From Psammoneis japonica (Eukaryota): a stretch of DNA of 64,000 nt. Under the pieces are notes generated by a model. The model did not search any database, was not told the origin of the DNA, and saw only the letters and a program-made list of their open reading frames with translations. How positions within the stretch are numbered: the stretch's first letter is position 1; each line of letters begins with the position of its first letter. Shown in pieces: positions 1 through 63,109 of the stretch. The position numbers were made by a program, and so were the translations under genes. The stretch is taken from NCBI GenBank assembly GCA_008632985.1, contig QPGO01000086.1, positions 186,001 through 250,000 of the forward strand, written 5' to 3'.

Positions 1-49
1 GGACCTGGTTGCAAACCAGTTCACAGCAGTCCCGTGTCCACCAGAGGAG

Positions 50-5001: not shown

Positions 5002-5100
5002 CAGTGCTCCACCAGCCCTCCAGACGGGCCCACCCGCCCAATCCCAATGCATGTTTGGCTGGCTGCTGCACCGCCTGCACATCAGTGGGTGGCGCTGGAA

Positions 5101-5310
5101 GCCCTGCCGTCCAGCTTTGGGCAGGGAGAAAACCTTCACAGCGCTGGCAAAGCCATCTCCACTCCAAGTGCACAATGCATTCCATGAAGTTTTACATCAC
5201 TTTAGAAGAGAGCGCGCGACCAGTGGTTTGAACCCACCGTTTCACCCCAGAAGCACGCTCGTCCATCCCCGATGCGAAGCGCGCATGAGCAAAGCGGTGG
5301 CAACCGCTGT
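5101..5310 (+). repeat. Split direct repeat B1 (210 bp)
   Basis: Matches 5498-5707 except at 8 dinucleotide sites. Confidence 0.95.
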
Positions 5311-5497
5311 CCTCATCCAGTGCCAGAATCGGGGAGAAGACCCATCACCTGTTGAACCACGTGCGCACGTTGAACGTGCTGCAAGGGTTGGTTGTTGTTT
5401 TTCTTCGGTCACCGGCCTGTCTCATTCTTTCAAGATCGACAAAGACAAGCCGCTGTCGTCAGCGCAGTTTGATCGCTCCCACCTCTCCCACCCTCTG

Positions 5498-5707
5498 GCC
5501 CTGCCGTCCAGCTTTGGGTGGGGAGAAAACCTTCACAGCGCCAGCAAAGCCATCTCCACTCCAAGCACACAATGCATTCCATGAAGTTTTACATCACTTT
5601 AGAAGAGAGCACGCGACCAGTGGTTTGAACCCACCGTTTCACCCCAGAAGCGCGCTCGTCCATCCCCGATGCGAAGCACGCATGAGCAAAGCAGTGGCAA
5701 CTGCTGT
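5498..5707 (+). repeat. Split direct repeat B2 (210 bp), probable element 3' end; the 5311-5497 spacer is the putative A2
   Basis: Direct repeat of 5101-5310. Confidence 0.95.
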
Positions 5708-6824
5708 GAGTCAGACGGTCATGTGGCGCACATTGAATGCAAAAATGGGACAGGCGCGGACAAATGAATGTACAATGCAGTGCAGCGGTGACTCTGCCAG
5801 CTGCCGGTAGCCAGCTGCTGCTCTCTCTAAAAGAGAGTGGCGCAGTCGAGTAAAGAGGGCCTGCTCTGGCTCTAGCTGGGGCCCCACAGCACCAGTTGAT
5901 GTTCATTGAATTCAATTTTACATGCCGAAGTTAATCGTCACTGCTTTCTCGATGACACTGGACGGCAACAATCTCTGTGTTGTGTGCTGCTGCAGCTTGA
6001 GAGTTGCGACAGTCACCGAAATTCCCCAAATCCATCAGGACTTGACTTCAGACTTTGTCGCACTCAGGGATTGGAATCTGCAACCTGAGGGGAGGGCTTG
6101 GTTCAACATCGTGGGTCATTGGCGCCAGCACTGCATCCACTTGTTGTGCATCATGAGGCTGAGTTGACTCAGAAATTGAGTCGGGAATGATCAGATCTTG
6201 TGCAGCAAACTTTGCACATGTTCCTGTGCACAAAGCTGTGCAGGTGCTGCAGGCATGTGCCTTGCACACTTGTGGAACCCAGTGCTGAGGAGGGTTTGTC
6301 TCAGCCGAGCCCAATGAAAATGGTCCAAGCAATGAGGTGGAGACCAATGAGGTGGGTTGAAAATGGCCAAGAACAACCCAAGCATGGAGGGTGGATGACA
6401 GGGAGGGGGGCTTCTGCCCACCCAGAAGGCCACACCATGACAAGCTTTGGTCGTTCTTGGCCAATGTCAACCCCATCAAGAAGTTGCAACCAAGGTGACT
6501 GCATTGATTGCAAAGGAAGTGTGAGTGGGGTCTCTGGCTGTGAGGATTTTTGTGTTAAAGCACAAACACGCAATTGCATAGAGGGCATTTCATGTGCAAG
6601 ACTTCAGTGCAGGTGCGCAACGAGGACGGTTTGGCTCGCTGTCTTTCTTGGTTCTTTCAAAACACAATCTAGTCTACTAAACTTCGAACGCCACATTTTT
6701 GTTGATCTTTTGATTTCCTGGAACAGAGAAAGACAGAAGGGACAGTTGGACGTCAAAACTAAAGGATAACAAAATGCAAGCTACTTTAAAGTCCGAGGCA
6801 TTTCAGATTTCACAACATTGCCTC

Positions 6825-17323: not shown

Positions 17324-18463
17324 ATGAATGAGACGCAACAAGAACACGGACATGGTTGTCAACCGTCGTGGCTCTCAACAGAGTCGTATGGCTTGATCGT
17401 TTTGGTATTATCGGCCGTATTGTTTTCCGTCATGGGAACCTTTCTCAAGCTCGCGACGGACACAGGCTTACCATCCACGCAAATGGTTTTCTTTCGGGCT
17501 TTCTTTCAAGGCTCCGTGGTTGTGATTTGCGCGTGTTTTTGCAGAACCGCTCAAGGCAATCTCGTTATTACAAGACCGCTTGGTGATACACGAGAAATCA
17601 GCAAGATTGTCATATTGAGAGGTGCCATTGGAGGAATGGGGTTTTGTTTGTACTTTTTTACATTAAGCGCACTGCCTCTTGGCGATGCGATTGCGACTCT
17701 GTCCTTGTATCCAATTGCAACCATTTTCTTTGGAAGATTCTTTTTGGGAGAGCCCATCAAGTTTCTTCATGTGATTGCGGCGATTGCCAGTGTCGTTGGA
17801 ACAATATTGATTGCGAGTCCATCATTTATGTTTGGCCCACAAGAACAACAGAATAATAGCGATGTGAATCCAATTGGATACGTGACGGGTGTTTTGGGTT
17901 CATGCTTTGCGTCCGGTGTCGTGACGCTCATTCGAAAGGCAGGCATGGTGGGTGCCCATACGCTCCAACTCTTGCTTTCCTGGGCATCCTTTGGACTCTT
18001 GTTCAGCCTATTCTTTGGATTGATACCGAGTGTTGTGCTGAACAGCAATGACGACGCATCATGGCAATGGCCAAACAATTGTTGGTTGTACATTTTCGCC
18101 GCCTGCACGATTGGATCAGCGGCACACTTTATGCTCAATTACGCCGGTCGATTGACGCCCGCCAGCTTGGCAGCCATTGCACGGTCCACTGACATTTTAT
18201 GGGCCTATCTGTCTCAGGTTTGGGTCTTTGATGAAATTCCTACAAGCAGAACTTGCGTGGGCGTTTTGCTCATTTGTGCTGCCCTAGTAGTTGTCATTTG
18301 CGTTCAACGACGAGGTGTACAAGAAGAAAGCAGTGGTAATGTTCCGGTTGGAGCTGAAAAGATACCAACCCATGATTTCATCGAGGAGAATTGTCAAGTT
18401 GAAACAGGTATAGAATTGGACAGTGCAAAGGGCAAGTTAATGAACGGCTCAGCGCAGAACTAA
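17324..18463 (+). CDS. EamA/DMT superfamily transporter (SLC35G-like)
   Basis: About 10 TM segments; LRGAIG, LPLGDA, FFLGEPI, LIASP. Confidence 0.9.
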   Translation: MNETQQEHGHGCQPSWLSTESYGLIVLVLSAVLFSVMGTFLKLATDTGLPSTQMVFFRAFFQGSVVVICACFCRTAQGNLVITRPLGDTREISKIVILRGAIGGMGFCLYFFTLSALPLGDAIATLSLYPIATIFFGRFFLGEPIKFLHVIAAIASVVGTILIASPSFMFGPQEQQNNSDVNPIGYVTGVLGSCFASGVVTLIRKAGMVGAHTLQLLLSWASFGLLFSLFFGLIPSVVLNSNDDASWQWPNNCWLYIFAACTIGSAAHFMLNYAGRLTPASLAAIARSTDILWAYLSQVWVFDEIPTSRTCVGVLLICAALVVVICVQRRGVQEESSGNVPVGAEKIPTHDFIEENCQVETGIELDSAKGKLMNGSAQN

Positions 18464-18774
18464 ACGGTCTCAACGCGACACAGCGACACACCTTGTCAGC
18501 ACGCATACTCAACTGCCTACCAGGATGGGTCATTCTTCCCATGCCAATAGCGAATAAGGGGGACAAGGATTGATTATGGGGTAGGTGCACTACTTTGGAA
18601 GTCACTCTGCTACTGTCTTTGTATGTTCAATGCGAGCCACGAGTAGTTTCAGAATGTACATACGTTTATCTATGACAGGAGGTTAGTTCACCCAGTGCTG
18701 TTTTCCAACTCCGTCGTAACGGTTACATCTAACTCTGCCTTTTCCTAATCTAACTTTTAGGTCGATATCTGTAG

Positions 18775-19452
18775 CTAATCATCTGACTCGTCGTCATCGA
18801 CCTCATCTTCCAACAACAACTCATCGTCATCGAAGTCATCTTCCGACTCTTCCAACAGTAACTCATCTACTAACTCGTCGTCGACTTTATCCGCTTCCTG
18901 TTTCCCTTCTGGATCTTTTCCCCTCTGTGGTTCACCAAGCCTCCGTTTAGGGCATCTCACTGTGAATCTCTTTTGAATAATGAATCTTGTACTCCTCTTT
19001 TTAGGGGAACCGCCACAGCCGTTGCTTCCCCAGACCTCTCCGTAGACCTTCATGCTCACATCTTGTCTCCACCTGGGAAACCTGGGAAATGAACAGACGG
19101 CATCAGTAGCAATGTCGCGAAAGGGACGATCGGGGTAGTCGGAGAAAGATCTACACTTGACCGGTGGGTCGTTCCCGTTGTTTGTAGTGACGGAATGCGT
19201 CATACATTCTCTTGCTTGGCGGTACGCTCGTTCCCGAATCGTATTGGGAATGTAACTGCCTCCCAAGCCCGTTACCCTGAATTCAAAGGGCCGCACGTGA
19301 CGTGGCCGGCTGCCATAAGCTGTGGATACGGTAAGACGGTATGCCGCTTTGCAGGAGCACTTGTATGTCTTGGCGGCGCACGCCATGACAAGCAATGTGG
19401 AGAGCGACATGCGTAGGCATGAGATCCAGTTTAGGGATAGTGCAGTCTTCAT
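18775..19452 (-). CDS. Secreted Cys-rich cationic protein with RRL site and acidic tail (copy 1)
   Basis: Signal-like N-terminus; Arg-rich Cys-containing core; KRRLG followed by an Asp/Glu tail; intact paralog at 26865-27539. Confidence 0.8.
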   Translation of the reverse strand: MKTALSLNWISCLRMSLSTLLVMACAAKTYKCSCKAAYRLTVSTAYGSRPRHVRPFEFRVTGLGGSYIPNTIRERAYRQARECMTHSVTTNNGNDPPVKCRSFSDYPDRPFRDIATDAVCSFPRFPRWRQDVSMKVYGEVWGSNGCGGSPKKRSTRFIIQKRFTVRCPKRRLGEPQRGKDPEGKQEADKVDDELVDELLLEESEDDFDDDELLLEDEVDDDESDD

Positions 19453-20105
19453 TGTTCTGTTTTTTCTAAGTCACACTTGATTTAATCTTTACATCTGTTG
19501 GATGTGTGCTTTTGTAGTTTGAGCTCCGAAGCTTGCCGAAATGCAATTTTGCATCGCGTAAGCTACTGATTTTAGTGGTATATTTCACATCAAGAGTCGA
19601 CTCAAAGTCGCGATCGCGACTTTGTATCCCCATTCTAGCCAATGATGGGATAAACATGCACGAAAACGAGGAGCACTAAACCTTTGTCAATCTGCGTCAG
19701 GTATGCTATTGGTTTGAGTCTTATAATATTCTGCATCGCGAGTTGACGACTCAAAGTCGCACGAAGCGACACTTGCCACGAGCCAATTGTTGAATAGACT
19801 ACACTAGAAGACGCGATATGAAACGTTCTTTGACTAGAAGTCGCGATCGCGACATGAAACGAAATAGAATCGCACCGATGCTTAACATGATAGCAAGCTG
19901 ATTAAAGTCGCGATCGCGACATGAACGGGAAGATCAAAATTGTGGGAACAAAAAAATGTCGTAGGTCGCGGTTCTCGTGGGACTCGAAAAAGGGTCTTGA
20001 CTGTGGAAGACGGAAGGAGGGCAAGGCGAACGAGTGAAGAGGATTCTTTGTTACATGCCTGGTGCAACAAGGCGTTTCAGCCACAACAAAAGGGGCGTCA
20101 GTCGC
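19421..20105 (+). repeat. Gene-start/promoter segment, copy A (largely intact)
   Basis: Aligns with 20218-20932 and 27508-28412. Confidence 0.9.
19603..19624. promoter_or_regulatory. Perfect 22-bp palindrome CAAAGTCGCGATCGCGACTTTG, candidate cis element
   Basis: Identical at 27694-27715; core GTCGCGATCGCGAC recurs at 19840, 19907 and 28019; function is inferred only. Confidence 0.4.
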
Positions 20106-20217
20106 ATGAAGGGAAACTTGCCACGAGCAAATTGTTGAACAGACTGCACTGGAACCACTGGAAGTCACGACAGCATGAAACACGATCTTTGGCTGCTGGA
20201 AGCCACGATCATGACAC

Positions 20218-20932
20218 GAGATCCAGTTTGGGGACAGCCCAGTCGTCATCATTCTGTTTCTTCTAAGTCAAAATTGAGTGAACATTTGCATCTGACAGAT
20301 GCTTGTTTTTGCAATTTATGAGCTCCGAAGCTTGCCGAAATGCAATTTTGCATCGTGCAAGCTGTGCCACTTCAGCAAACTTTCACATCAAGAGTCAACT
20401 CAAAGCCGCGATCACGACTTTGCAACCCCATTCAATCCAATGATGGGACAAACATGCATGAAAACAAGGAGCGCCAAAGCTTTGTCAATCTGTGTTGAGC
20501 ATGCTGTTGGTTTGAGTCTGGCAATGTTCTGCATCGTGAGTTGACAACTCAAAGTTGCGCGAAGCGACACTTGCCACGAACCAGTTGTTGAATGGATTGC
20601 ACCAGAAGATGCAATGTGAAATGATCTTTGACCAGAAACTGCAATTGTGACATGAAACAAAACAGAATTGTGCTGATGCTTGACATGACAGCAGCTGCTC
20701 ATCAAGAGTTGCAATCATGGCACCATGAACAGGAAAATCAAAATTGTGTGTGAACAAAATGTCGCAGGTCACGGTTCTCGTGAGACTCAAAAAAGGGTCC
20801 TGACCAAGCAAGATGGGAGAAGGGCAAGGCAAATGAAGCAAATGAATTTCTCAGCAAAGAGAATTCTTTGCTGTGCGGCTGGTGCAACAGGTGCATTTCA
20901 GCCGCCACAACAAAAGGGGCATCTCAGTTGCA
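20218..20932 (+). repeat. Gene-start/promoter segment, copy B (TA- and CG-hypermutated)
   Basis: Colinear with copy A, with TA->TG/CA and CG->TG/CA changes throughout. Confidence 0.9.
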
Positions 20933-25755: not shown

Positions 25756-26552
25756 CAAGACCGCTCCGTGACACGCGAGAAATCAGCAACATCGTTGCAT
25801 TCAGAGGTGCCATTGGAGGAATGGGGTTCTGTTTTGCACTTTTATACAATGAGCGCGCTGCCTCTTGGCTGTGCCATTGCGACTCTGTCCTTGTATCCCA
25901 TTGCAACCATTTTCTTTGGAAGATCCATCAAGTTGCTTCATGTGATTGCGGCGACTGCCAGTGTCGTTGGAACAACATTGATTGCAAATCCATCATTTTT
26001 GTTTGGCCCACAAGAACAAGATAATAATATCGACGTGAATCCAATTGGATACATGACGGGTGTTTTGGGTGGGCGCGCGCTTTGCCTCCGGTGTCGTGAC
26101 GCTCATTTGGAAGGCATGCATGCTAGCCTGTTCTTTGGATTGCTCCCGAGTGCTGTGTTGAGCAACAATGACAATTCATCACGGCAATGGCCAAACAACT
26201 GTGGGTTGTATGTTTTCTCCACCTGCACAATTGGAGCAGCGCCACACTTCATGCTCAATTGCGCCGGACGCTTGACGCCCGTCAGCTTGGCAGCTATTGC
26301 ACGTTCCAGCGACATTCTATATGGGCCCATCTGTCTCAGGTTTGGGTCTTTGATGTAATTCCTACTAGCAAATCATGCGTGGGCGTTTTGCATTCAACGA
26401 CGAGGTTTACAATAAGAAAGCAGTAAAAATGTGCCGGTTGGAGTTGCGAACATACTAACCCGAGTTTTCAACGAGGAGAATTGTCAAGACGAAACAAGTA
26501 GAGAGTTGGGCGGTGCAAGGGGCAAGAGAATCAACGGCTCAGTGCAGTACGA
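25756..26552 (+). pseudogene. 5'-truncated, frameshifted copy of the EamA transporter
   Basis: Aligns to 17571-18463 with deletions and frameshifts. Confidence 0.9.
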
Positions 26553-26864
26553 AACGGTCTCACGGCGACACTGTGACATACCTTGTCAGCACGCATACTC
26601 AACTGCCCATCAGGCCAGGTCATTCTTCCCATGCCAAGAGCGAATAAGGAGGGATGAGGATAGATTATGGGGTGGGCGAACTACTGTGGAAGTCACTCTG
26701 CTACACTCTTTGCATGTTCAATTGAGCCACGAGGAGTTTCAGAATGTGTTTACGTTTATCTATGACAGGAGGTTAGTTCACCCAGTGTTGTCTTCCAACT
26801 CCATCGCAACGGTTACATCTAACTCTGTCCTTTCCTAATCTAACTTTCAAGTCGATATCTGTGG

Positions 26865-27539
26865 CTAATCGTCTGGCTCATCGTCATCGACCTCATCTTC
26901 CGGCTCTTCCAACAACAACTCATCGTCGTCGAAGTCATCTTCCGACTCTTCCAACAATAATTCATCTACTAACTCATCGTCGACTTGGTCCGCCTCCTGT
27001 TTTCCTTCTAGATCCTTATCTGTCTGTGATTCACCAAGCCTTCGACCAGGGCATCTCAGTGTGAATTCTTGAATGGTGAATCTTGTACTCCTCCTGCTAG
27101 TCGAACCGCCGCAGCCCTTGTTTCCCCAGACCTCTCCATAGACCGTCATGCTCACAACTTGTCCGGGGTCATTCCATGGGCAGACGGCTCCAGTAGCAAT
27201 GTCGCGAAAGTGACGATCAGGGTAGCCGGAGAAAGAACCCCCTCTACACTTGACCGGTGGATGGTTCCCATTGTTTGTAGTGACGGAATGCTTCATGCAA
27301 TCTCTTGCTTTGCGGTACGCTCGTTCCCTAATCGTATTGGGAAAGTAACCGCCTCCCGAGCCCGTTGCCTTGAATTCAAAGGGCCGCACGTTATGGCTGC
27401 CATAGGCTGTGGATACGGTAAGACGGTATGCCGCTTTGCAGGAGCGCCTGTATGTCTTGGCGGTGCACGTAATGACGAGCAGCGTGGAGAGCAACAATCG
27501 TAGGCATGAGATCCAGTTTAGGAATAGTCCAGTCTTCAT
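26865..27539 (-). CDS. Secreted Cys-rich cationic protein with RRL site and acidic tail (copy 2)
   Basis: Intact ORF; conserved SCKAAYRLTVSTAYGS, PNTIRERAYR, VYGEVWG, RRLGE. Confidence 0.8.
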   Translation of the reverse strand: MKTGLFLNWISCLRLLLSTLLVITCTAKTYRRSCKAAYRLTVSTAYGSHNVRPFEFKATGSGGGYFPNTIRERAYRKARDCMKHSVTTNNGNHPPVKCRGGSFSGYPDRHFRDIATGAVCPWNDPGQVVSMTVYGEVWGNKGCGGSTSRRSTRFTIQEFTLRCPGRRLGESQTDKDLEGKQEADQVDDELVDELLLEESEDDFDDDELLLEEPEDEVDDDEPDD

Positions 27540-28429
27540 CGTCCTGTCTCTTTTAAGTCAAACTTGAGTTAAACTTTGTTACATCTGTTGGATGTGTGTT
27601 TTTGCAATTTATGAGCTCTACAAATTGTCGAAATGCAATTGTGCATCGCGTTTGCTGCTTTTTTACTCTTATATTTCACATCAAGAGTCGACTCAAAGTC
27701 GCGATCGCGACTTTGTAGCCCCATTCGATCCAATGATGGGATAAACATACATGAAAACAAGGAGCTCCAAAGTTCTGTCGATCTGCGTCGTGCATGTTAT
27801 TGGTTTGAGTCTCATAATGTTTTGCATCGCGAGTTGACTCAAAGTCGCACGAAGCGTCATTTGCGGTGATTTAATTGTTGAAGATACTCAAAGTAGCGAA
27901 TGCGATATGAAACGAAATAGAATCGCGGCTCTTTTAAAAGCGATGCTAACCATGATTTAGAAGTCGCGATCTTGTGTTTTTTGTAACTCTTGTATTTCAC
28001 ATCTAGATTTGACTCAAAGTCGCGATCGCGACTCCTTGACTCCAATCGCGCCAACATTGGGATGCACATGCATGAAAACAAATAGCACTACATCTGTGTC
28101 GCGTGCGTTATTTGTTTGAGTCTTACACATTTTGCATCGCAAATTGACTCAAGGTCGCATGAAGCGGTTGCTGAATATAGATTGCCATACACTGCCTCCC
28201 GATCGCGATATGAAACGAAGCAGAATCGGACCTACTTTGAAAGCGATGCTTACCATGCTATTAGCTGATCGCGATCGCGACATGAAATAATGGAAAATCA
28301 AAATTGTGAGACGGCCGGCAGACGGCATTTTGTGTCTTGTGTCGGTCGCAGTTCGCGCGGTTCTCGTCGTGCGGGACTCGTCAGGTCATTAAGTCCCGAC
28401 CAAGCAAGACGGCCCATGGGGATTTGCAA

Positions 28430-31530: not shown

Positions 31531-32085
31531 CCTTGCCACATGCTAGCAACAGAAGATGACAAATGATGAGAGCGAAGAAGAATAGAGCGACATTGCGCCT
31601 GCCGATTGTCGGAGGGAAGTTCCGGGTTTTATTCCGGAGAATAATTCGTCGGAGCTACAAACATACCATGTTCAACGGCAGATACTTCGTACGTAGCTCA
31701 CAATATAATTTCTACGTAACTTCACCGCCGTGACATTTCTCCAACAGTTACGTTCGTCACCCGTAAATGGTATCTACATCGATGAATAAAACGCCATCTG
31801 TTGCAGCCATCCGTTAACAAGAAATTCAATAGCTTATTTATGGGAATAGAAAAAAGAAAACAATTTGCGTACTCGTGAAAATCACGTAGAATTCTACGTG
31901 CGTTGAATGGTGTCTTTTTCCTCGCACGTACAAATCTACACAATTCAATACCGGCAGCAAAAGGAGACACTCGCAAACAAACGCCGCAAGTCATCACAAC
32001 CCATCCGTTTTGACGCTGATATTCTGCCGCTCTCTCTCTGTTCCAACTCATCCACACTCCTATCCTACTCGTTACTGCATTCACC

Positions 32086-33383
32086 ATGTGTGTTACCAAT
32101 ACGGTCAATCGCCGCAGTGCTGTGAAGCTGCCGGCGGCATCGCTGTCGTCGTCAACGACAACAACAACAGCACCGTCCATGTTGTCTCAGCGATTGTTTA
32201 CTTCACTACCAGAATACGTAGAATCCTACGCAGCACCGAAAGCATCCACGGCTGCCATGAACAACAACAACCCCTCTGCCATGATGACGACTGTCGCTCC
32301 TTGTCCTCCCATGGTGGTGTCCTCTTCATCGGATTCGGAACACTCCTATCCACAGTTGGCCCCCGCCCCTTCGTCTCAAGTTGCCAAACGCAAGAGAAAA
32401 CGCAAACGCAAGCCTCAATTGCCCGGCAAGACGGCCAAGATGAATGATCGTCACTTTGTGGTTCACAATTACCACGATCACGCGTTGGATGTTGATGTCG
32501 TGGAGAATCAAAAGCGCCGCGGGGGTGTCGCCACGGCGTTTCCACTCAAGTTGCACGCCATGCTGGCCAAGATTGAAGAGGACGGATTGGCCCACGTGGT
32601 TTCGTGGCAACCGCACGGACGGTGCTTTGTGGTGCATCAACCCAAGGTCTTTTGTGAGTTGGTGATGCCCAAGTATTTCAAACAAACGAGGCTTACGTCG
32701 TTTCAGCGACAATTGAATCTATATGGTAAGAGTTGTATGTTTGTTTTGTGTTGTTTGTGTGTCTTTAAGTTGCTCGTTCTTCTGTATGCTTACAGACGCT
32801 CTCTCTATCTCTATTCTTCTCTCTACTAGGTTTCAATCGCATCACCAAGGGACGTGACAATGGTGGTTATTACCACGAATTGTTTCTCCGAGGAAAGGAG
32901 TTTCTTAGCAAGCGCATGACGCGCACCAAGGTCAAGGGCACCAAGTTCAAGGCGGCGTCTTCTCCCGACTCGGAGCCGGACTTTTACCAAATGCCCTTTG
33001 TGCAGCAACAACAGCCGGTAGTCAAGTATGAAGAGCAGCCACAAGAGCAGCCGGTTGTCTATCCAGAGGCCCCGTCCTTTGCCTTTGAGGCACCGCGCGA
33101 GGTTAGGTACGAACAGCCTCCCGCGGCACTCGCTCCGGTTCAACCCGTCTACCAAACAACGACGTTTGAGCAGCCACAAGTATCCTCCAGCAGCAACAGC
33201 GACACATCGGACGAGGACGATGATGCCAATTTGATGATTGACTTTGTCAATATGTGGGACGCACCCACGGAAGTTCCAACCAGACTGGAACAAGAATTGG
33301 CAGACTTTGAATTGCCCGATGGATGCATGATTGAGAACGATGCTCAATTGGGGGAACTCTTGGAAGCGCTCTTGGAAGAGTAA
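32086..33383 (+). CDS. Heat shock factor (HSF) family transcription factor, intron 32726-32829
   Basis: FPLKLHAML...VSWQPHGRCF...LTSFQRQLNLYG|FNRITKGRDNGGYYHELFLRG; GTAAG...CTAG intron. Confidence 0.93.
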
Positions 33384-50889: not shown

Positions 50890-51069
50890 GAGAAACATTT
50901 TTATTTAGAATCGTATGATGGTGGAATTTCATAGGGTAGGTTCAGAGTTTTGGGGCTGGGAGATCAAGAAGAAAAAAAAAGAAAAATGCTACATCGATAA
51001 ACTAGTAGAACAAGATGCCTTTCAATCACTCTCACTCTACTAGAGAGCTACCGTACTGGCACCTTCTTG

Positions 51070-54000
51070 CGTTCAAGAAAAGAGCGTCGCAAGCGCCCGA
51101 CTGGGCCGTCCATGCGATGACGTGGTGACATGGTGCCCCATTTTGTTTTTTCATTCACAACACAGCCATCATTGTTCCTTGAGGTGTTCGTCTCGGCATT
51201 TCAGGTGCTGTGACCGGTGCAGCAAAGGCTGGCAAGCTGTTTGATGAAATGTTGTGCTCTCAGTCGTCGTGTTGCACAGATGAAATGGCCAGCGTGGGTC
51301 GACTTGCTGTGTTGGTGTGGGAGAGACTCTTGGCATTGGACAGAATGTTGGTCTCAGCATTTAAGATGTTGCATCTGGTGCAGGTTGAGTGGGTCAAGGC
51401 ACTGGACCCAGTGTCATCAGCTGGCCAGTCAATTTGGAGCTGCTGCAGCCAGAGAGGCCTTGGAGGTGGCGGGGCTGGCACGGGCACGCGCAAGCTGTGC
51501 TGCCAGCACAGCTCAACTCAACGAGCAAGCAGGGTTGAGGGTCACTCAAGGAGAACATGCATCATTTGATTTTTGTGCAAGCTGGAGTGACCATGGGTGT
51601 TGTGGGCACTGACATCCTTTGATGAGCAGGGGTGCCCATTGGCATTTTCATTTCGTGAGTGCTGGAGCAGCTCCCCCACTCCATTTGCAAGTGTGCACTC
51701 CTGGACAAGAGTGTCCAGAATCACCATTGGGAAGAAAGGAAAGGAGAAACAGCATTGACAAAAAGGCGCACATTGACTCTGGGAACTCAGACACAGTTGG
51801 GTCTGTGCAAACACTGGGAGAGATGCAGCCTCATTTCAAGAGTGCAAGGGAGTCAATGAGAGACGTTTCTTCCCCAGACAGCACAAGTTGCTGGATGACA
51901 AGGGGCTTGTGCCACTTGTCTCTTTTGCCATGGATGCAACCTGAACACCTTGCCCCCATGTCTTGTTGGGACAAGGAGAAATTTTCAGACAGAGGGAGAA
52001 AATGGCACCTGCCAGTCTGCAAACAGGTGATTCCCTCTTCAGCAAGTTAGGGTGAAATGGAAAGAACAAGAGAGCAAGAGTGTTGGGGCAATGTGTGATG
52101 ACTCAAAAAATTGCCCCATCAAGGGTGGAAACCCCCTTGTTTTTGCCTGTTTCAAGCTCTCTTTTTCTCATCTGTCAAATTTGTTTGCTCAAATGACCCT
52201 CTCGACAAATCACATTCAATGCCAAAAATGCCCAGAAGAGTCTTCAATGTGAGCTCACAGTGGTGGCTCACTCATCCACAAAAACAAAACAATGCCCATC
52301 ATCATCTGATGTCAGCATGCACTTTCAGATTTCCCATGCTGCTTGTTCATTTTGTTCTTGCCACCAGCACCTCATGGCTTGCTCAAGCACAAATGAATGC
52401 TTTCAGGTGTGGCAACACCTGAAAAAGCTGCTGGCAATGTCTGAATTCCCTCCTGAGTGCAAGAAGAAGTTTTGGTTGCCGCAACAACTCCAAAAGGCTC
52501 TTGTTTCATGCAGTGTCGACCCCTGACTTGCAGTTGCGGATTTCAGCATGGTCCTTGGGAGCGTGCACAGTGAAGGGTCAATTGCTTGTGAGATTCTTGG
52601 CATGGAATCAACTGCCTCTGCTTGGATTTGACTGCACATGATGTGTCAAGGAAATTTCAGAGCCGGGCATCCACACCCGAGGCCAACACAGAATTTCTGT
52701 CACTCAGTGCAGATTTGCGCGATGCTGTGAACATGACATTTGAAGAATTTGAAGTCCTCAATGGCAAGGAAAGCAACAAGGAGAACCAAGCTCCTCAAGC
52801 AAAATCTGACAAGTTGCCAATTGATTTTCACAGGCACGTGCTGGATGGTGCACGGCACGTTGAAACCCGTGCATTGGGGCTTCTGCCATTTTGGGCATTT
52901 GATCATCACAAGCATTGCAAGCGCAAAAGGCACCTCAGCGCAAATGTCAAGCTGCTTGAATTCAAGAAGGATGGGTTTGGCTCTGCAGACACTTGCTGCT
53001 GTGCTGCGTGTGGGGAGAAATGTGAGTTTCACATGGCTGAACATGTGAAGACTGCCAGTGTGTTGGAAGGAACGCGTTTCTTGTGAACACAGTTTAGGCT
53101 CAATGTGTCTGTGCCAGCAAGCATCAAGTGCGCTGGACTCAACTCACTGCAAGCCATTGAACTTCATGGTGAGGCTGGGATCATTGCCCTGACAACAAAC
53201 AATCTGGGCAAAAGGATGAAGAAAGTGCACATGGCACTGCTGCAGGAAACAGAAGATGCCTCAATGGAAAATTGCAAGTGGGAGATCAAAGCAACACAGT
53301 CAAGCCCCAACTTTGATGAGGATTGTGGCACAATCAAATGGAAGGGTCCCAAGGGTGATGAGCGGTGCGCTGCCAAGGTGTCAGCACAAATGGATGGATG
53401 CGGGACAACACGATCGCACGGGAATTGCTCGACAGGTGCAGATGCACTGTCGTGCTCACAGATGTGTTGTGGCCACTGCCATGCATGCTCAGTGTGGTTT
53501 CTGGGTTTTCTCTCACCGCGCGTGACTCCTCCTGCGCGCAGCACCCAATTCTTCAAAATCTGATTGGACGTTTTGCTGATCAGACATCGGAGCAGACATT
53601 CAAGACAAGACGGGTTCCAGCCCCAGGTGGGACTTTTTGTGACATTTGCCCTGCAGAATTCCACATGCAAGCTCTGCAGTTTGCACTCTGGTCAATGGAT
53701 GCACTTGTCTTTGACATGAAATGAACGGCCAAGTTTGCAGCAGAGGGGCGTGCGGTTGTTGCAAACTCGGCCCATTTTTCACTCCAACGGTCAAAATGCT
53801 TTCCAAAGTCACGAAAACCATCAAACAAATCACACAGATCGAAAGTTCAGAATCAGAGCTAAAAATCGATGTGGGCATGTCACATGCTGCCCAAGAGTCT
53901 TTGTGCCTGAATGAAGCTGCAAAAGCAGTGCGCACGAAACCAAAAATCGAGCGAAACGCGACAATGAGACGTCTCGTCCCGGTTTGCGTTGATTGTCATC

Positions 54001-57000
54001 ATTGCTCTAATTTGCATCTTGCTCAGATCATCCTCAGTGGACATGTGAACAACAGCAGCTTCAGCAGCATGAAAAACACCTCATCTGGGTGATTTTCATC
54101 ACCATGAAGCACTCCATTGTGGTGCTGCATGAGCTCACGTGAGTGAAAATGTGGCTCAAAGTTTGTGAGCCAATGTCTCAACAACCACACAAACAACAAT
54201 GAAGCCACTGCACAGCATCACTCTGCATCATTTGCAGAACACGTTCATTGACTTAGCCATGCAACAGAAGCTGTTTTGAAGGATGAGAAACGTTTTGCGT
54301 CAAGGCACTTGAGTCATGTCAAAAGCACAAAATCTTCTTCACAGTGCAACAGCGAACATCTGTGCGAGCACAAGAGCAACCCCCAAAAACCCCAACTTGG
54401 CATTGTTCTTCATTGTCCACACAACACATTCAGCCTCTTGCCAGTGTGATGCAACCATTGTTGAAGGACGAGATGCATTTCGCATCAAGAGGGTGCATTT
54501 GTTGTCGAAATCATGGTGTGTGTCAAAACTCGTTCAGAACTCCGCGAGGATTGCTGCCCGAGATTCGGGCCTTCACCGGTTGAGTGTTCAGACTGAACAT
54601 TTTCATTGATGGTCAGCATTGATGGTTTGCCACTGACTGCCAGTGGTCAGTTCTGTTGGCGATCCATTGCCAAAAAAGTGCGCAAAAAGCGCACTCTGGT
54701 TTGCATCAACCCCGCGCCCCTCTGCACTCAAAGTTTTGGACAACACGCCTGCCCTGCGCCATTCTTGAGACACTCGAGAATGGCGCAGAAGGAAAAAACA
54801 TTGAAAGTTGTTGAATGGATTGCCTGATGATTGTGCCACAAAATCACACAAAATTTTGCCAACATCACGTGGAAATGCATGTGCGCGACACACAGTGCGA
54901 CGTGATTCAAAAAACCATCAATGTCACAGTTCAGCAGCATGAGGTCCCACCCAGACCTGGAACACATCACAAAATGTTCAATGCCGCCGATCCACCAAGA
55001 AGGAGGGCATCCAAATGGCTGGGTTGATCAAACTCAGAGGAAGCCACAAATTTGGACATGGTCCAGTGTGATGGGGTGAGACTCTTTTGTTCAAAGAAAA
55101 AACAAGCAAAAAGATGTTGGCACAAGTCAAAATGAACATTGCAACGGACAGCGTCAGCTCCATGAACTGCTTCAAACATGCCAACCAACACGCACAAGTG
55201 GCCCAGTTTCAGAAGGATGGGTGTGAACATGGCAAGATGCAGAATGACAGCCAGCCAAACATTTTCCAAAGTCTGCACAGTTGGAACTTGTGACAGCATG
55301 TGTCCCCACATGGAAGCACCAGCAGCAGCTTTTGCACTCAAAACAGCTTTTTTTGCAGATTTCCCTGGACTCAAAGGCTGTTGTGAAAAAGCTTTGCAAC
55401 AACTTCTTCATGTCAAAGCAGGACAAAGAAGCACAGCAAGTCTTGCCAGGTGGGGTGCAGAGCTGGCTTGATGGAGATGATCACGTCATTGGCTGCAGGC
55501 AGCAGCACAACAAAACCATCATTTGAAGGAACCAGCAAAATGAGAAATGTCGCCATTCCTTGACCACAAACTGAGCCACTCTGGACATCTGCCAATGCAC
55601 CAGATGCAAGCTTGATCCAGTGCAAGAAGTCTTGGTCAATGCTGTTTGCTCATTGTTGGCAAAAAAAAAACCACAGACAACATGTTCCCAAAATGGCTGT
55701 GCACCAAGGATGTGATGTCCACACTGCGCACAGCTTGACCCATCTCCTCAGAAGCAGAGGCTCCACTCTCCAAGTGGCCCCTTTGCAATCCCCACAGATG
55801 GTGCCACAAATTCTGCAGCATTTGGCTTTTTGGCAACATTGCCAGGCAAAAAAACAATGTCTGGGGCTTTTGCACCAAGAAACAAGCCACTGGGCAGCCA
55901 CCAACTTTGAAGCCAGGAAGAAGAACTTTGTTGGCTTGTCCTGAGTGAGACCCTTGCAAGAGCCATGGCCTGACAGACTTTGGCATCTTGCAAACCACCG
56001 GGCAAAGGCAAGGTGCAGAGCCCTTGCCAGAGCTCCATTTTTGCAAAAAGAAGAGATTGAAATGGACCTGGGCTTTGAGGTGGCAAGACACATCAGGCTT
56101 GTTGACAACTGCTTGGGTGTGGTGCAGCCAACAATTTTGCACCAGGTTTGGCAAGGAGCACCTGTGGCAGCTTTGTGCACTTTTTGGTCTCCTGAAAAAT
56201 GCAAGAGCTCCACAATGCAACAGGCAACAAATTGGGCTCATCTGACAGAGAAGAGCTCCTCCTGTGCTTGTCAACAAAGATTGTGACAGGACCACACAGT
56301 GCAAAGACATGTGCAAAGGTTTCTTTGACAGCAATGCCAGGTGGTGGCAGCACTTCTGTGTCCTTGGCTCCTTTGGCATGCTGAAAATTGATTTGGGCAC
56401 CTGTGGACAGAGGCCGTTTGGGCAAATGGGTGAATGGGTGAATTGCTTTCTATGATTTGCAACTGCAGCTGAACAAAACTTTGCCACACCTTCCTGATGG
56501 ATCAACCCATGGAACAGGCTGCAGCATTTGGCACTGGGGCTGCAGCTTGCCAGTGCAGCATGACCAGAGCACACTTTGGTTTGTGGGCTGCACACCATCT
56601 TTGAGCCTGCAACGCCAACAACAGGTCCTGTGAGAGACCTCTGCAGCATCAAAAACCTTGGCATCCTCACCTTGCCTGACACAGTCTCTGTTGTGTGCAG
56701 GGCCCAGCTTTGGCTCAACAGCAAGTGTGTTGCCCACAAACATTTGCAGCGATGAGGCTCATGATCAGAGCATGCACTGCAGTGATCCAGACCACCTTTC
56801 TCACAGCAACATTTTTAAAATCCATCACAGTGCAAAATTCTGTTGTTTCAAACCTTGACAGTCATGCAGTGCATGGCGATAATTTGTCAAATGTGAAAGA
56901 CAAAAAATTGTTGCTGTGGTGCCCCACCCTGTGCTGTGAGACAAAACCTTCAACTGTGAAATTGCACCCTGTTTCCCCTTCAGAGTCCCTGCCTTTTTCA

Positions 57001-59950
57001 CCTGCAGACTTTGACATTAAAAAGCCTTTTGACAAAAACAATTTGTGCCAACAAACACGTTTGATGTTTTTTTTTTAAATGCATGACACAAGTTGTTTGT
57101 CAATCAATGGCGTGAAACATCTCTCAATGAACACAAAATTGCTGCACTCCCAGGTTGTAAATGTTTTCAATGAACACCAATGCATTGCTTTGTGGTTTTT
57201 CATTCTCACACTGACAAAAGGCTCCACTCCCTCTCTGTGCCGGAGTTTGCTCCATTTCTGCATCTTCTTCATCCTCGGCTCCTGCTTCACTTCCTTCTTC
57301 CTCTTCTTTGCCACCCTTGTTGTGCTGGTCCTTTTCCATTTTCCTCTTTCTTGTCCTCCCAGTCAGAAAACTCTGTTGTTGCCTGTTTTTCTTGCCTCCT
57401 TCTCCACTGACATTTTCTTCTTTTTTGCTCCCTTGCCCTTTTCATCGTGCTCTCCCTCTTCTTGCTGCCACCATGCCATGTGTTGCACTGCACACCTTCC
57501 TCACTTGCCCTGTCCTCCTTCACTTTGCTGCAAACAACGCACCTGACAAACATGTCTCTGTTCACACATTTTGAAATCTCAGAGCTGACAACAGAGAGTT
57601 CAAGAAGAACTTGGTGGCACTGACAACTGCCCGTTGCAACTCCAACAAGGTCAGCTTCCAAATGGGAAAGTTGGCATGGCAGCGTGCACACCCCTGACAG
57701 AGGTTTGTTCCTTGTGGCTGTGCAGTGTGCCAGGCAATCATGTCAAGCCATCCAAAAGAGGCGGCGCGCCAGCCACTCACACCAACAGCACAAATTTTGC
57801 CAAGCTGTTGGATGAAATGCACAGGAGCTGCAGCTGGATGGAATTGTGGTTTGGTGCCCAATGTGCCCAGGATGTGTCATGCCTTCAGCAGTTGGAGGCG
57901 GTGTTTTGCAAGCATCTGCGTTGCTCCAGAAGTGTTGTGGGGGATTTTGCAGCAACCATCCATGGCAGCACGCATCGCACAGATGGACAGACTGCCCCCC
58001 TGCTGCGATCTCGTGCGCGCGTGCCCAGCACTCGCCACTCGTCAGCCATCGTCAGTGCGCAGCAATGACATCATGCAGCACTGTGCCACAATGCTGCAAC
58101 CGGCAGACTCTCTGCTGCCAGTGGTTGTCGGTGCAAATGCCACAATGCCATGTGCAGCATTTCTTTCTGCGGCAAAGCTGGTGCTGATTCTGTGCAACGC
58201 CACATAAAATGCCATGTTTTGCATGTGAAAAAGCGTGCCGGCGATTGATTCGTAGCCCCCGACTGCGACAAACTCATTTCTCATGTGTGCAGAAGCCTTG
58301 GAATGCCACTTCCAATCAATTTTCCCTTGTGCATTTCATGCGCCCCTGTGCCCAGTGGTGTTTGACGCTTTGCTGTCAATGGAAAAACAGCTGGGGAGCA
58401 TTGGAAAAACAGTGGTGGCATCTGGGATCAAAATGCCATGTTCATGCCATGTTCAGGGCAAATGTGGCATTTGCGTGGATGACCAGGGGATCCCGCATTC
58501 CCGCATCTCAGATCAGCTCCAGGGGACCCCAGTGGGAAGATGGCGCAGGTCTGTCCCTCTGCAAACACTGAATGACCCGGGTGCAATCGACCACCACCTG
58601 CCCAGACCGCACACCAAACGACAGTCTACAGAGCACACTGACACCACGCCTGGAAGACAACAAAACCCACCATCACAAAGGAACACGGTGCCAGAATCAG
58701 CTCAAAATTCTCGCGCACCGCCTGCGAAAATGCGCGCGTCAACTGCCCCTTGCTCGCGCAACTGCACCAACTGTGCAGTGTCCATTTTCCTTGAAAAAAA
58801 AAAAAGCAGTGGAGAGCAAGGCACATTCCCACCCTGACAATTTTGGCTGCAAAACAAATGTAATTTCGTTCTACACAAAATTCCTGTGGAAACCCTCGCA
58901 CAAGAAAAGTCGCGCATCTGTTTTCCATCCTTCAATTTGCAGCCGCAATTGTCAGCAAATTGCGATGACAGGTGTCGGTCGTCGTAAATTCTCTCCCACA
59001 AACATGATTTTCATGGCAAATTTGGCGTTTTGGGAGCTCGAACATGCCACGTCACAAGCTCTCCCATTTTGTTTGTTTCTTTCTCCGCTCCCATCCGCAC
59101 AACAACCATGATGGCTGCTGCCATGAACGGACCCATTCACACACGAACGACCGTCCTGTCTACGAAGGTGAGAATGTAGAGACAGGTCAACAAGACTGCA
59201 CTTGATGCAATCAATTGGTCAGAATCTTGAGTTTTTGTTGTTGTTGTGGCTTGTGACGACCGTGTGGACCAAAGGCATTTTTGATGTCTTCGTGTTTCTC
59301 TTGCTCAGATTTTGCGTTGGGATTCTTCACAACTCACACGTCTGCAGACTTGAGGCCAAATCTTCGTGGCAATGTGTGATCTGACATTGCATTGAGGTGG
59401 TTCTTTGGTGTGTGCTCAAGGTTGTCACTTGGTTGACGGCCAAGAGTCAAGAACACAAGAACTTTGGTCGCGTCAACAACAGCAGCACTTGTGCTCCGTT
59501 GTGATGGAACATGACTGTGAAGAAGGCTGTGTGCACTTGTTTCGTTAACCTTGTCGCAATCTGGGACAATGATGCTGGTGGGGGTCAATGTTTTGCACAA
59601 CAGCGCCCCACAGTGCCTTGCTCCATTTCCTGCAGCCCTTCTCTGCAGCTTGCTGTGTGCATTTTTGCTCTTTGAAAATGGGCCCAGGCCATTGGTCAAC
59701 TGCTGGAGTTAAGAACAGTGCCTTTTAGCACCTTGTGTGCTGTGGAAATTTCATTTAGCAGTTTTACATGCTGCAGTCTTGCTGCGTGCCATCGTTCGGT
59801 GCGTCTTTCTGCTCTCTCTGCAACTCCTGCCAGTGGATTGGATGTTGGGTGCTTTTCTTCTAGCCTTCACTGGTGTTATCATGAGTCTTTGGTTGCCGCA
59901 GAGCAATCGCAAAATGGACAACGATGGTCACTGACAATGTTGTGATGTCT
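51070..59950. other. Large TpA- and CpG-depleted block of nested decayed transposons
   Basis: Abrupt loss of TA after about 51060 and return at about 59950. Confidence 0.8.
52622..53563 (+). mobile_element. Mutator-like transposase relic
   Basis: E..DGFGS...C..C, LN.......G, EDASMEN..EI, and VSAQMDGCGTTRSHGNCSTG resembling V..DG.W..RSYG..Y.S.G. Confidence 0.5.
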
Positions 59951-60139
59951 CTCTAGCAGCTCTAGCTGCCAGAGAGTGGCAGTGAAAACAGTGCTGTAGC
60001 GTGTAGCGTCCTCGCCGAGCTAGACATGAGATTTTGATCTTTTTTACCGATCGAATTCGTTCCCAGCCTGACGCCCGTAAATAGGTACGTAAATTTGGCC
60101 AAATTATATTTATTTTACGGCCGAAATTATCAGGGTGGG
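58828..60139. mobile_element. About 1.3-kb non-autonomous TIR element with 39-bp TIRs (58828-58866 and 60101-60139)
   Basis: CCCACCCTGA... inverted repeats with 33/39 identity; no clear TSD. Confidence 0.75.
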
Positions 60140-60166
60140 AACGTCCTAAGAGTACAGGGGTCACCG

Positions 60167-60540
60167 ATCTAGTGTTTATTATTTATTATGCCGGACGATT
60201 ACTTATTGCTTAGACAATATCGGCAAAGAAAGGTGACAACTTCATTTAGGTAACTTTTATTCGAACATTAAGCACAATGACGTCATAGAGGTCTTTCTGG
60301 GTAGGCGTGCGTCAGAACTGCCTGACATGGCCTCGTTGGGCGTCGAATGCTTAATTAATATAGTAAAGCTGATGTCAGCAACATATGTAAGAAAATGTCC
60401 GGCGTGTCTTCATGCCTCGCGGATTTTATTTATGAAAATAATAAACACTGTATTTACTGTCAAATAGGAAATAATATTATTTGAATTCATTAGCAATACA
60501 ATGCTCGCGGAAATAATACGAAAAACAATAAACACTAGAT
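60167..60540. mobile_element. AT-rich MITE-like element with 14-bp perfect inverted ends ATCTAGTGTTTATT
   Basis: Inverted repeat at 60167-60180 and 60527-60540; additional internal end-like copy near 60437-60450. Confidence 0.6.
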
Positions 60541-60790
60541 GTGCGCGCTGCGCGATTTCGATTAGATCAGCGATGCCTGTAGAGCAGCAGCAGCAACAAG
60601 ATTAAATTACATCAGCACTGTCTATTGTCACTGACCCTACTGTTAGTGATACCCTCCTTATAGAGGACCGATTGTCGAATCGCCACGCCCTCACAGTCGA
60701 GAGTCACTTCATTCCTCAGTGACGCGGAAAGCCATCACAACAGCGACAACAGCAAATCCGCTACGTGAACGTTCCTCCTCCCATCTCGAC

Positions 60791-62035
60791 ATGATGTCTT
60801 ATGCCGTTTACACCAACAAGCGCCGCCGTGTGTCTACCGCGCTGAATGCTCGAGAGCGCCAAGACTTGTTTGCAAACAAAATTCTCCCGCTCTTGGTGGC
60901 AAACGAGTGGCTTGGTGTTGCTGAATTGGCGCGTCTCAACCAGCTCTCGTCATCACGTGAATGGGTGATGGAAGAATCGTGGGCTTTGGTGGCTCGTCGT
61001 ACGTGGCCTGAAACCAACATTGACGACTTTGTCGGTGACGGCGAAAAGTGCCTCTCGCCTAGCTTTCGTGGATTGTTTGGTATCAACTTTCCACGGAACT
61101 GGTTAACGCTCGAGATGCAGCGCGTGACTGCCAAGGAGGAATGGCAAACGCTCCGCCATATGAATCAATACGGCGAGATAGAATGTATTCAATGTGGCTG
61201 TAATTGCAGAGAATATTCCTGGGATATGGATTGTCCTGGATTCCCGATTTACACGGAATTCCGCTACGAACGTATGGAAAAACTCGAATGGTTTATCGAT
61301 GCGTTTGAACCAGGACGTGCCAATAATTATTGTCAATCATGCTTCGAACACTACTTACAAGAAGGAGATGTCAAGCAAGAAGAGTACGAAAAGATGGCTC
61401 CTTGTTTGCTCAAGGATCTTGTCATGGAACATCTTTGGTCCGGTGAGGGATGTTTACTCTGCAGAGGAATCGACCGTGAGACCTTTCTCAATGATCTCTA
61501 CCTCCTTGACAGCTACATTTGGAGCGAAAAACTCAAGGATAACGGCCAAGAAGCCGAGGCTGATGACTATCCGGGTCAAGAAATCACCTTGGATGACTTT
61601 CTCGTGGTTCTTGCGTACGGCCTTGCCGACGAAAAGTGCACCAAGTACAAGACGTTGGATCTTTCCAGCTGCGCTGGTGCTAGCAGCAAGCACTATGGAG
61701 AACTCGGTATCAAGGCGTTGGCTTTCGCATTTTCCATGAATACGTCCGTGGAAAATTTCTTCATGTATGATGATGACTGGGGTGATACGGGTGAAGGGAA
61801 TCCGTGTTGCGAAACGTACCCAATGAACGCAGACCTATCGGGTGGCTTGTTCCTCAAGGCCCTACAGCATAATACTGCTTCCAAACTAAAGAAGCTACGC
61901 CCCTGTCCCACTACCTTTGGGACCAAGGTTGTCAACAAACTCACTCAGTACGTGGAGGTAATTGGGACACCCCACCACCACATACGACTTTATGATGAAC
62001 GACCGGAAAGGGTCGAACGAGTAGGTAGGCAATGA
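60791..62035 (+). CDS. Hypothetical protein with F-box-like N-terminus, Cys clusters and RNI-like LRR C-terminus
   Basis: WLGVAELARL..W.LVARRTWP; CxxC motifs; TLDLS..GELGIKALAFAFSMNTSVE. Confidence 0.6.
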   Translation: MMSYAVYTNKRRRVSTALNARERQDLFANKILPLLVANEWLGVAELARLNQLSSSREWVMEESWALVARRTWPETNIDDFVGDGEKCLSPSFRGLFGINFPRNWLTLEMQRVTAKEEWQTLRHMNQYGEIECIQCGCNCREYSWDMDCPGFPIYTEFRYERMEKLEWFIDAFEPGRANNYCQSCFEHYLQEGDVKQEEYEKMAPCLLKDLVMEHLWSGEGCLLCRGIDRETFLNDLYLLDSYIWSEKLKDNGQEAEADDYPGQEITLDDFLVVLAYGLADEKCTKYKTLDLSSCAGASSKHYGELGIKALAFAFSMNTSVENFFMYDDDWGDTGEGNPCCETYPMNADLSGGLFLKALQHNTASKLKKLRPCPTTFGTKVVNKLTQYVEVIGTPHHHIRLYDERPERVERVGRQ

Positions 62036-62272
62036 GGCTGGCTCTGGGGAGGGATGTGACTGCCCACGCCACAACTCAATATTTTGGTCATTGAGATCCG
62101 GGTTACTAAGAACGTTACAACATGATACTTACCCGTACAAAATCATTTTACGGGGTAATAGACTACCTTGAACCTGTACATTCGATGCGTCGATGCGATA
62201 GAGATAATGAAATCGTCGTGATAAAGGACTTATATATCCTACTCTAAATCCTAAGCGCCATAAAGGAGCAAC

Positions 62273-63109
62273 ATGCGTGCTTGTCAGTTCTTGTTTTCTA
62301 TAAAGTGCGTTGCTGTAACGACAGCAGCGTTCACGTTCACAGGCAAGGACAGAATTAAAAGCGCACAGGTGACGACAACGACGACTCCATCACGACCTTG
62401 TTCTACTACATTTTCTTTTGCGCTTCAGGAATCGGTACGAGTAGGCAACAACGGTTCAAACGACATCGTGCCCTTCAGCTCTCTGAAACGTCGCGATGTG
62501 TTAGTTTCATCGGTTTTGAGCGGTATTCTGTGGATCGACACACCTCCTCGTACTGCGCAAGCACAAGAAATGCCACGTGAATCTGCCTTGTCTGCAGGAC
62601 GACGACAATGCAAAACCACATCGGATCCATCCAAAACGACGGTAACTTGTTTGGGTGATTTGCGCCAATTCAATGCCGATGGTCGGTTATCGTCCATTTC
62701 GGCAACCACCAATGGCATTTCCACGTCAGCCATCAAGAATCCGGAACGATACCGACTTCCATGGACCTATGTTCCACAAACGTCCGACCCAAACGTGGCG
62801 TGGGAGTCTCTCGTCCAAACCATAAAGGACGATCCTACACTGGAAATTGTAGAATTGAACAAGGACGATTATTATTTACACGCGACATCACCAACCCAAT
62901 ACCCTCCGGGCTTTTCTTCGGAGCAAGCAGCCGGATTGGATGACTTGGAGTTTTTGCTCAGGCCGGATGACAATTTAGTCTTGTATCGGAGTGCCAGTCG
63001 AAGCTCACTCTTTGTGTATCCCATTACCCAACCCGTGAGTGATCGAGATACTAATTTAAAGCGACTCGACAAGATTCGAAATGCATTGGGATGGGGTGAA
63101 CTGGGATAA
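62273..63109 (+). CDS. DUF1499-like protein, predicted plastid/thylakoid-lumen targeted
   Basis: Signal peptide ending TAA-FT (ASAFAP-like); RR-DVL...AQA Tat-like signal; YLHA, DDLEFL, YRSASR, SD..TN.KRL..IR..LGW. Confidence 0.8.
   Translation: MRACQFLFSIKCVAVTTAAFTFTGKDRIKSAQVTTTTTPSRPCSTTFSFALQESVRVGNNGSNDIVPFSSLKRRDVLVSSVLSGILWIDTPPRTAQAQEMPRESALSAGRRQCKTTSDPSKTTVTCLGDLRQFNADGRLSSISATTNGISTSAIKNPERYRLPWTYVPQTSDPNVAWESLVQTIKDDPTLEIVELNKDDYYLHATSPTQYPPGFSSEQAAGLDDLEFLLRPDDNLVLYRSASRSSLFVYPITQPVSDRDTNLKRLDKIRNALGWGELG

Follow-up and report, generated by a model that had tools for sequence, protein, structure and literature searches.

Point mutation is directed against mobile DNA by RIP (repeat-induced point mutation) among fungi and by APOBEC/ADAR editing in animals. 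RIP, in Neurospora and other fungi, is triggered by sequence duplication and converts C to T at CpA, thereby making TpA. A version specific for TpA, with A:T replaced by G:C, has been described once so far, for viral inserts of Bigelowiella natans, an alga unrelated to the organism studied here, in a preprint of 2026 (Mettrop et al., bioRxiv 10.64898/2026.01.13.699255). We examined 64 kb of DNA from Psammoneis japonica (assembly GCA_008632985.1, contig QPGO01000086.1, positions 186,001 to 250,000 of the forward strand; hereafter the window, whose first letter is position 1), in which TA-normal DNA alternates with blocks nearly without TA. The right edge of one such block falls inside a 1327-bp element with terminal inverted repeats (TIRs), so that one end of the element lies within TA-purged DNA and the other outside it.

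In B. natans mutation-accumulation lines, according to the preprint, the mutation rate of two regions of integrated giant-virus and virophage DNA is raised about 1000-fold. Of 231 changes, 230 are A>G or T>C, and each of these 230 falls on TpA; its authors propose defence against invading DNA by way of adenine deamination (bioRxiv 10.64898/2026.01.13.699255). That text as accessible makes no mention of CpG, diatoms, boundaries, context or flanking bases, and so describes no CG loss, edge anatomy or flank rule. This preprint apart, none of the papers listed in our literature search was seen to describe an erasure of TpA, be it in diatoms or at transposons and their ends. Two further sources bear on the element: the PIF/Harbinger superfamily has TIRs and a 3-bp target-site duplication (PMC2213677), while Harbinger-like elements are described in Thalassiosira pseudonana, and CpG methylation in diatom retrotransposons (PMC2806351).

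The element and its ends

An original prediction, made without database searches, had paired 58828-58866 with 60101-60139 as inverted repeats that straddle a domain edge and differ only at TA and CG sites. Both 39-nt arms were found at these positions. They differ at 6 of 39 positions: the left arm has C for T at 58838, 58850 and 58855 (TA>CA), G for A at 58860 (TA>TG), and T for C at 58844 and 58848 (CG>TG). The predicted tally was also confirmed, four of the five TA and both CG of the right-arm core being altered on the left (three of three CG over the full arm), and the sole surviving left-arm TA, at 58861, is followed by A. The claim that no other base differs is correct for substitutions; extension of the arms, to 44 nt by a repeat search and to 47 and 46 nt with the contig described below, added a seventh mismatch of the same signature at 58825 (left A, right G; CG>CA) and, against that claim, a 1-nt indel. 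The right arm is short of one G that is present in the left arm and in another copy, found as a contig of a public sequencing run (X2). This contig matches the window until 60144 and then reads G, CC and TAA before passing into unrelated sequence; the outer limits of the arms are therefore 58820 and 60146, a G is missing from the right arm of the window, and TAA follows both copies. A degenerate arm pattern allowing both forms occurs at exactly two sites in the window and at none in each of 100 shuffles. The flanking trinucleotides CAA and TAA are equal once a TA>CA change is allowed. Duplications of the PIF/Harbinger type are TWA, and the element has the look of a non-autonomous PIF/Harbinger-like transposon that inserted once, an assignment that we make tentatively from its ends. 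Positions of the element, its parts and neighbors are collected in Table 1.

Table 1. Features of the purged block, the element and its right-hand neighbor (window coordinates).
Feature	Position	Length	Strand	Remarks
TA-purged, CG-poor block	51057..59704		.	From hidden Markov model, change-point analysis and 500-bp counts; right edge within element
Whole element	58820..60146	1327 bp	+	TIRs, no open reading frame of at least 200 aa, multi-copy; apparently non-autonomous, tentatively PIF/Harbinger-like by its ends
Putative target-site duplication, left copy (CAA)	58817..58819		.	From sequence; TA>CA difference from right copy
Left TIR	58820..58866	47 nt	+	Within purged block; 7 substitutions vs right arm: 4 TA>CA/TG, 3 CG>TG/CA
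Subterminal inverted partial arm copy	58936..58955	20 nt	-	90% complementary to 58834-58853; CA/TG forms
Subterminal degenerate arm copy	60058..60100		+	Adjoins right arm, near-palindrome with 60101-60146; CG and TA kept
Right TIR	60101..60146	46 nt	-	Outside purged block; 5 TA and 3 CG kept
Putative target-site duplication, right copy (TAA)	60147..60149		.	From sequence
Element part left of TA edge	58820-59704	885 bp		TA 6, CG 32; observed/expected TA 0.10, CG 0.64
Element part, edge zone	59705-59999	295 bp		TA 9, CG 7; observed/expected TA 0.48, CG 0.42
Element part right of CG edge	60000-60146	147 bp		TA 12, CG 13; observed/expected TA 1.10, CG 1.77
Small inverted-repeat element	60167..60540		.	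18-nt arms, 94% complementary; multi-copy, unmutated, between purged block and the open reading frame at 60650

How probable such a set of differences is by chance was calculated on the 44-nt ungapped arm, where a TA or CG would be lost through 16 of the 44 transitions that can occur. That seven of seven random transitions should all do so has P = 3.0e-4, or P = 1.7e-5 with a transition share of 2/3. With the left arm set as ancestor instead, none of the seven changes is TA- or CG-destroying.

The edge within the element

Blocks were called with a two-state hidden Markov model (HMM) on TA versus CA+TG sites, together with change-point analysis and counts in 500-bp bins. The HMM gave seven purged segments in the 64 kb, with abrupt edges, and in purged DNA TpA is erased while CpA and TpG are enriched (odds 1.6-1.9). 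In the block at 51057-59704 only 21 of 1922 TA+CA+TG sites are TA, with observed/expected ratios (o/e) of 0.04 for TA and 0.39 for CG; right of the block CG o/e is 1.04.

The TA change point is best placed at 59710 (2-lnL support 59685-59954) and the HMM edge at 59704, while CG density rises only at about 60000. The boundary had been predicted at about 59950, rightly inside the element, although this value falls between the TA edge (best at 59705-59710) and the CG edge. The TA edge lies about 440 bp, and the CG edge about 150 bp, short of the element's right end. In the edge zone between them TA makes up 9 of 67 TA+CA+TG sites (13%; P = 5e-8 vs the purged share, P = 0.049 vs the normal share), and at 59862 the window has TA where 12 other contigs have TG. 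The flank at 60150-60649 has a TA o/e of 1.00. The two losses do not cover the same ground, and that of TA is near complete where that of CG is partial, which argues for two processes, or two rates.

CG loss is also uneven along the block, with an o/e of 0.32 in 51057-57899 and 0.65 in 57900-58819; at the scale of the window, the change point for CG falls at 57971. Per 300 bp, we counted 0-4 CG at 55201-57600 and 10-18 at 53401-54900 and 57901-59400. This patchy retention may be a layering by age of silencing.

Support from reads and from other copies

Two of three listed public runs contain the stretch; all come from a single sample of a single study, possibly the source of the assembly itself, and no RNA run was listed as containing it. 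The third (X3) gave no contig on it, and X1 contains 74% of the sampled 31-letter words of 56500-62500. The left-arm bases on which the original prediction depended are confirmed by an X1 contig of 209 nt (depth 69) that matches 58671-58880, spanning left junction and left arm, with no other letter and one gap; this excludes a base-calling artefact in the left arm. Single-copy flanking bins have depths of 70-80, and the contig is thus approximately single-copy. A run of 13 A lies at 58795-58807, 10 bp left of the duplication, and the single gap of the contig probably falls there as length variation.

At a likeness of at least 80%, 711 X1 contigs were placed on 58000-61000. Their summed depth is 590-4000 across 58101-60625, as against the single-copy depth of the flanking bins, so multi-copy status applies to the element as well as to its left flank and to the small inverted-repeat element on its right. 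Summed depth is highest (4008) at 60020-60120, where the DNA is unmutated; being repeated is therefore not sufficient for mutation. The differences among copies are mostly transitions (97-117 places per transition type vs 12-26 per transversion type). A 392-nt contig of another copy spans 59645-60037, running through the edge, and other copies have joints and opposite-strand pieces at 60081-60155 and joints and deletions at 60081-60122. Variants were compared for 40 of 579 rows, 27 of these at or left of 59704. In nine of the 27 the window has TG or CA where nearly all other copies have TA (three) or CG (six); three show the reverse, and 15 other changes.

We found no transposase-encoding master: there is no such open reading frame (ORF) in the element, and no further copy of the element in the window or in the collections scanned. 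Viral contigs scanned with a 27-letter arm pattern gave no match. Two metagenome loci (L001 and L002) matched a 22-letter arm pattern over 22-23 nt, with nothing else in common with the element, and were treated as chance; the L001 match, exact over 22 nt of the outer arm pattern at 1851-1872 of a 43% GC contig, has no inverted partner.

A second edge and the flank preference

Another repeat pair straddles a block edge near 20054-20200. Between the copy outside (19418-20099) and the copy inside the block (20215-20923) we counted 25 TA>CA/TG changes and none in reverse, and 30 CG>TG/CA changes with 4 in reverse, amid 36 other transitions and 30 transversions; this pair is an older analogue of the TIR pair. 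The inside copy contains 2 TA and the outside copy 31. Repeat copies at 27485-27882 and 20197-20592 likewise straddle this edge. As a control, two copies that both lie outside blocks (17571-19825 vs 25756-27914) gave 27 vs 8 for TA and 26 vs 25 for CG, so a mild TA asymmetry can arise without a block. These control copies form a 2.2-kb dispersed TA-normal duplication of 81% identity that overlaps an EamA-type ORF, with a purged block after each copy.

The TA sites that survive in purged blocks, 41 in 17155 bp, are mostly in TAA/TTA context (31 of 41, vs 653 of 1692 in the background; P = 2.5e-6). Enrichment over background is 7.7-fold for TTAA, 3.3-fold for CTAA and 1.9-fold for CTAG, while ATAT, ATAC and GTAC have no survivors. 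The TA sites that remain include those at 58861, 58872 and 58985. Among 48 polarised ancestral TA sites, 22 became CA, 13 became TG, 4 were kept as TA and 9 became something else. Judged by the struck strand, 23 cases fit a rule that A followed by T or C is preferred and 4 contradict it, with 8 ties (P = 3e-4). All three conversions of TAA-context sites in the arms gave CAA, as the rule predicts.

Interpretation

The reading that we favor, at a probability of roughly 0.7, is a single insertion with matching ends, followed by two region-confined mutation processes with positional targeting. A 1327-bp non-autonomous cut-and-paste transposon, with 47-nt inverted ends and a TAA duplication, would have inserted once where an 8.6-kb silent repeat block now has its right border. 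Two processes would later have mutated the block and, with it, the left two thirds of the element. On either strand, the faster would turn TpA into CpA or TpG; adenine deamination at 5'-TA, quicker where the A precedes T or C, is the simplest account of this A:T>G:C transition. The slower would turn CpG into TpG or CpA, as deamination of methylated cytosine would. Both would halt inside the element, the erasure of TA near 59705 and the loss of CG near 60000, leaving intact its right 150-440 bp and the multi-copy DNA towards the ORF at 60650. The target would be set by the place of the DNA, presumably a silent-chromatin domain, and not by its sequence or repeat number. With 7 of 47 bases changed, the left end is probably a poor transposase substrate now, as the original prediction had reasonably proposed for such ends.

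That multi-copy DNA right of the edge is untouched and that the purge halts inside one insertion favor positional over homology-based targeting, and on this point the original prediction stands. It had also taken the pair as an internal control for both specificity and direction. For specificity the pair serves well, all seven arm substitutions and the duplication difference being of TA or CG type. Direction has to come from outside evidence because a comparison of two sequences is symmetric; it is given by the composition of the block (TA o/e 0.04), by the other copies (nine vs three of the 27 variant rows) and by the TpA>TpG/CpA mutation of B. natans.

Several observations weigh against the favored reading. 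A 3-bp duplication with one mismatch, in a register picked after inspection, is weak evidence when taken alone. The 40 of 579 variant rows compared include no arm position, so the family letters of the arms were not seen among them, and the right arm is covered by none of the 16 contig pieces listed of 752. The window holds no further copy, either for the arm pattern at up to 3 mismatches or in a BLAST search of 58001-60700, which returned the arm pair only. The supporting runs come from one sample and study, with no independent individual among them, and rule out a base-calling slip only. CG loss is partial in the element part left of the TA edge, yet all three left-arm CG are gone, which is compatible with chance if about half of the CG were lost; this difference speaks for two processes and not one. 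For a transposon origin of the purged blocks, the evidence is copy number and this one element: none of the 23 ORFs of at least 90 aa submitted from the block (51183-59708) and none of the 26 from other purged blocks matched Pfam (0 of 49 in all), and no viral marker was seen among them.

One rival keeps the positional process and moves the target to the thymine of TpA, an example being its oxidation to a uracil derivative able to mispair with G. TA is self-complementary, so that T>C on one strand equals A>G on the other, and the flank rule reads equally well as 5'-RTA; the sequence does not separate the two. The sole experimental report interprets the signature as adenine deamination by an enzyme yet to be proven; we rate thymine as the less likely target, though one to be taken seriously. 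An improbable rival is a homology-triggered, RIP-like process, for which the edge would mark the end of homology with a partner copy and not a chromosomal position. RIP is the best-known repeat-directed point mutator, all purged DNA around the element (58100-59700) is multi-copy, and short repeats such as the 374-bp neighbor, or the right end of about 150 bp common to short derivatives, might miss a length threshold. Against it, the deepest contig coverage lies over the right end of the element, which is unmutated, as is the multi-copy DNA of 60167-60540; the 392-nt contig shows that copies of the family cross the edge; and the chemistry is reversed, TA being lost rather than made.

The pair might instead not be one insertion, an old, right-truncated, mutated copy abutting a younger fragment, or gene conversion from an unmutated copy having restored the right end. 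The near-palindrome of the arm-like 60058-60100 and 60101-60146 could pass as a mini-element in itself, other copies have their joints and deletions just there, and the 1-nt deletion affects the right arm only. However, the inner arm-like copy has no terminal bases and, compared with the distal left arm, is much the more diverged; the flanking trinucleotides agree once the signature change is allowed, the edges are staggered (TA at 59705, CG at 60000) and so unlike one recombination junction, and another copy is contiguous over 59645-60037; we consider a two-piece origin about as improbable as a RIP-like one. Imperfect inverted repeats are common among transposons, and the arms of this family could be naturally unequal, the six core differences being the consensus state. 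It would then be a coincidence that all seven substitutions are of the kind suffered by the surrounding block (P <= 3e-4), that the CA/TG side is always the arm inside it, and that by alignment the subterminal copies are split alike, with CA/TG forms in the block and CG/TA forms outside; this makes unequal arms very unlikely. Least credible is an assembly or base-calling artefact at modified bases in a heavily modified domain. Domain-confined transitions are what such miscalls could give, but the exact contig over 58671-58880 was built from reads that are accurate (depth about 70; the longest X1 record has 315 kb), and the paralogous pairs carry the same pattern amid ordinary substitutions.

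With the single insertion and positional mutation kept as the preferred reading, the element is a natural experiment with its own control: two once-alike ends 1.2 kb apart, one in the block and one out. Its special merit is that the control is a single insertion anchored by a duplication. It indicates that TA and CG sites alone are struck, that the edge is defined to within a few hundred bases, that element boundaries and copy number are ignored, and that TA loss runs ahead of CG loss, and it points the search for a mechanism to a chromatin-coupled enzyme over a homology sensor. At even odds, we suggest for this organism a mutator guided by chromatin position that changes A to G at 5'-TA, fastest at 5'-TAY and on both strands. 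It would saturate silent blocks while CpG decay is about half done, and the domain border, rather than repeat identity, would delimit its reach with a precision of a few hundred bases, so that a transposon can be half destroyed, including one of its transposase-binding ends. If this is true, pairs of purged and unpurged repeats would be a two-clock record (fast TA, slow CG) of entry into silent chromatin.

Other features of the window

Eukaryote-type domains were found in 5 of the 14 long ORFs of the window: NB-ARC with TPR, JmjC/cupin, BTB/BACK, EamA and DUF1499. The ORF to the right of the block, 60650-62035, gave weak leucine-rich-repeat leads only in an atlas search (best score 0.90), with no informative taxon among them. 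Between the two, the small inverted-repeat element at 60167-60540 has a summed depth of 290-1040, and a 358-nt contig over 60153-60449 differs from the window by 9 letters; the element is TA-rich and has an extra inner copy of its end motif at 60436-60449.

Two of the seven purged segments have near-normal CG (o/e 0.87 and 0.92). The first, at 6-5769, is GC-rich (0.61) with a TA o/e of 0.14 and retained CG (o/e 0.87); it contains overlapping ORFs of 293-399 aa, and none of the 4 scanned matched Pfam. It is too GC-rich for ordinary DNA after TA erasure alone, so it may be of different origin or kind. The other, flagged by the HMM at 32231-32670 (441 bp, 2 TA, CG o/e 0.92), lies inside a 269-aa ORF (32020-32829) and is probably TA-poor coding sequence rather than a purged block. 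Large strand-coordinated tracts were considered and dropped, since in 300-bp bins the skew between CA and TG does not vary more within purged DNA than it does within normal DNA (variance of z 1.29 vs 1.67).

Comparison with known systems

In its ends the element resembles non-autonomous PIF/Harbinger (Tourist-like) transposons: it has TIRs, a 3-bp TAA flank, no coding capacity and many copies. Arms of 47 nt with subterminal arm-like copies are long for this kind.

The CG part of the pattern resembles the CpG decay of methylated transposons, with CG>TG/CA changes at three of three left-arm CG and a CG o/e of 0.32-0.65 in the block. Such decay covers the CG part only, and it differs from the TA process in where it ends (about 60000) and in how far it has gone. 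As in RIP, repeated or mobile DNA is ruined by dense transitions specific to certain dinucleotides, while genes are spared. Unlike RIP, the process here destroys TpA (A:T>G:C) and spares multi-copy DNA at 60000-60600, with a possible length threshold as a caveat to the latter.

The closest likeness is to B. natans: the fast process here is also nearly confined to TpA>TpG/CpA, is limited to certain regions, and leaves clusters with a shortage of TpA and a surplus of CpA and TpG. The two organisms belong to different eukaryotic supergroups, and the targets are viral inserts there, but a TIR element and gene-free multi-copy DNA here. In the P. japonica window, moreover, TA loss is near saturation, CG is lost as well, and the edge of the affected region cuts through one insertion.

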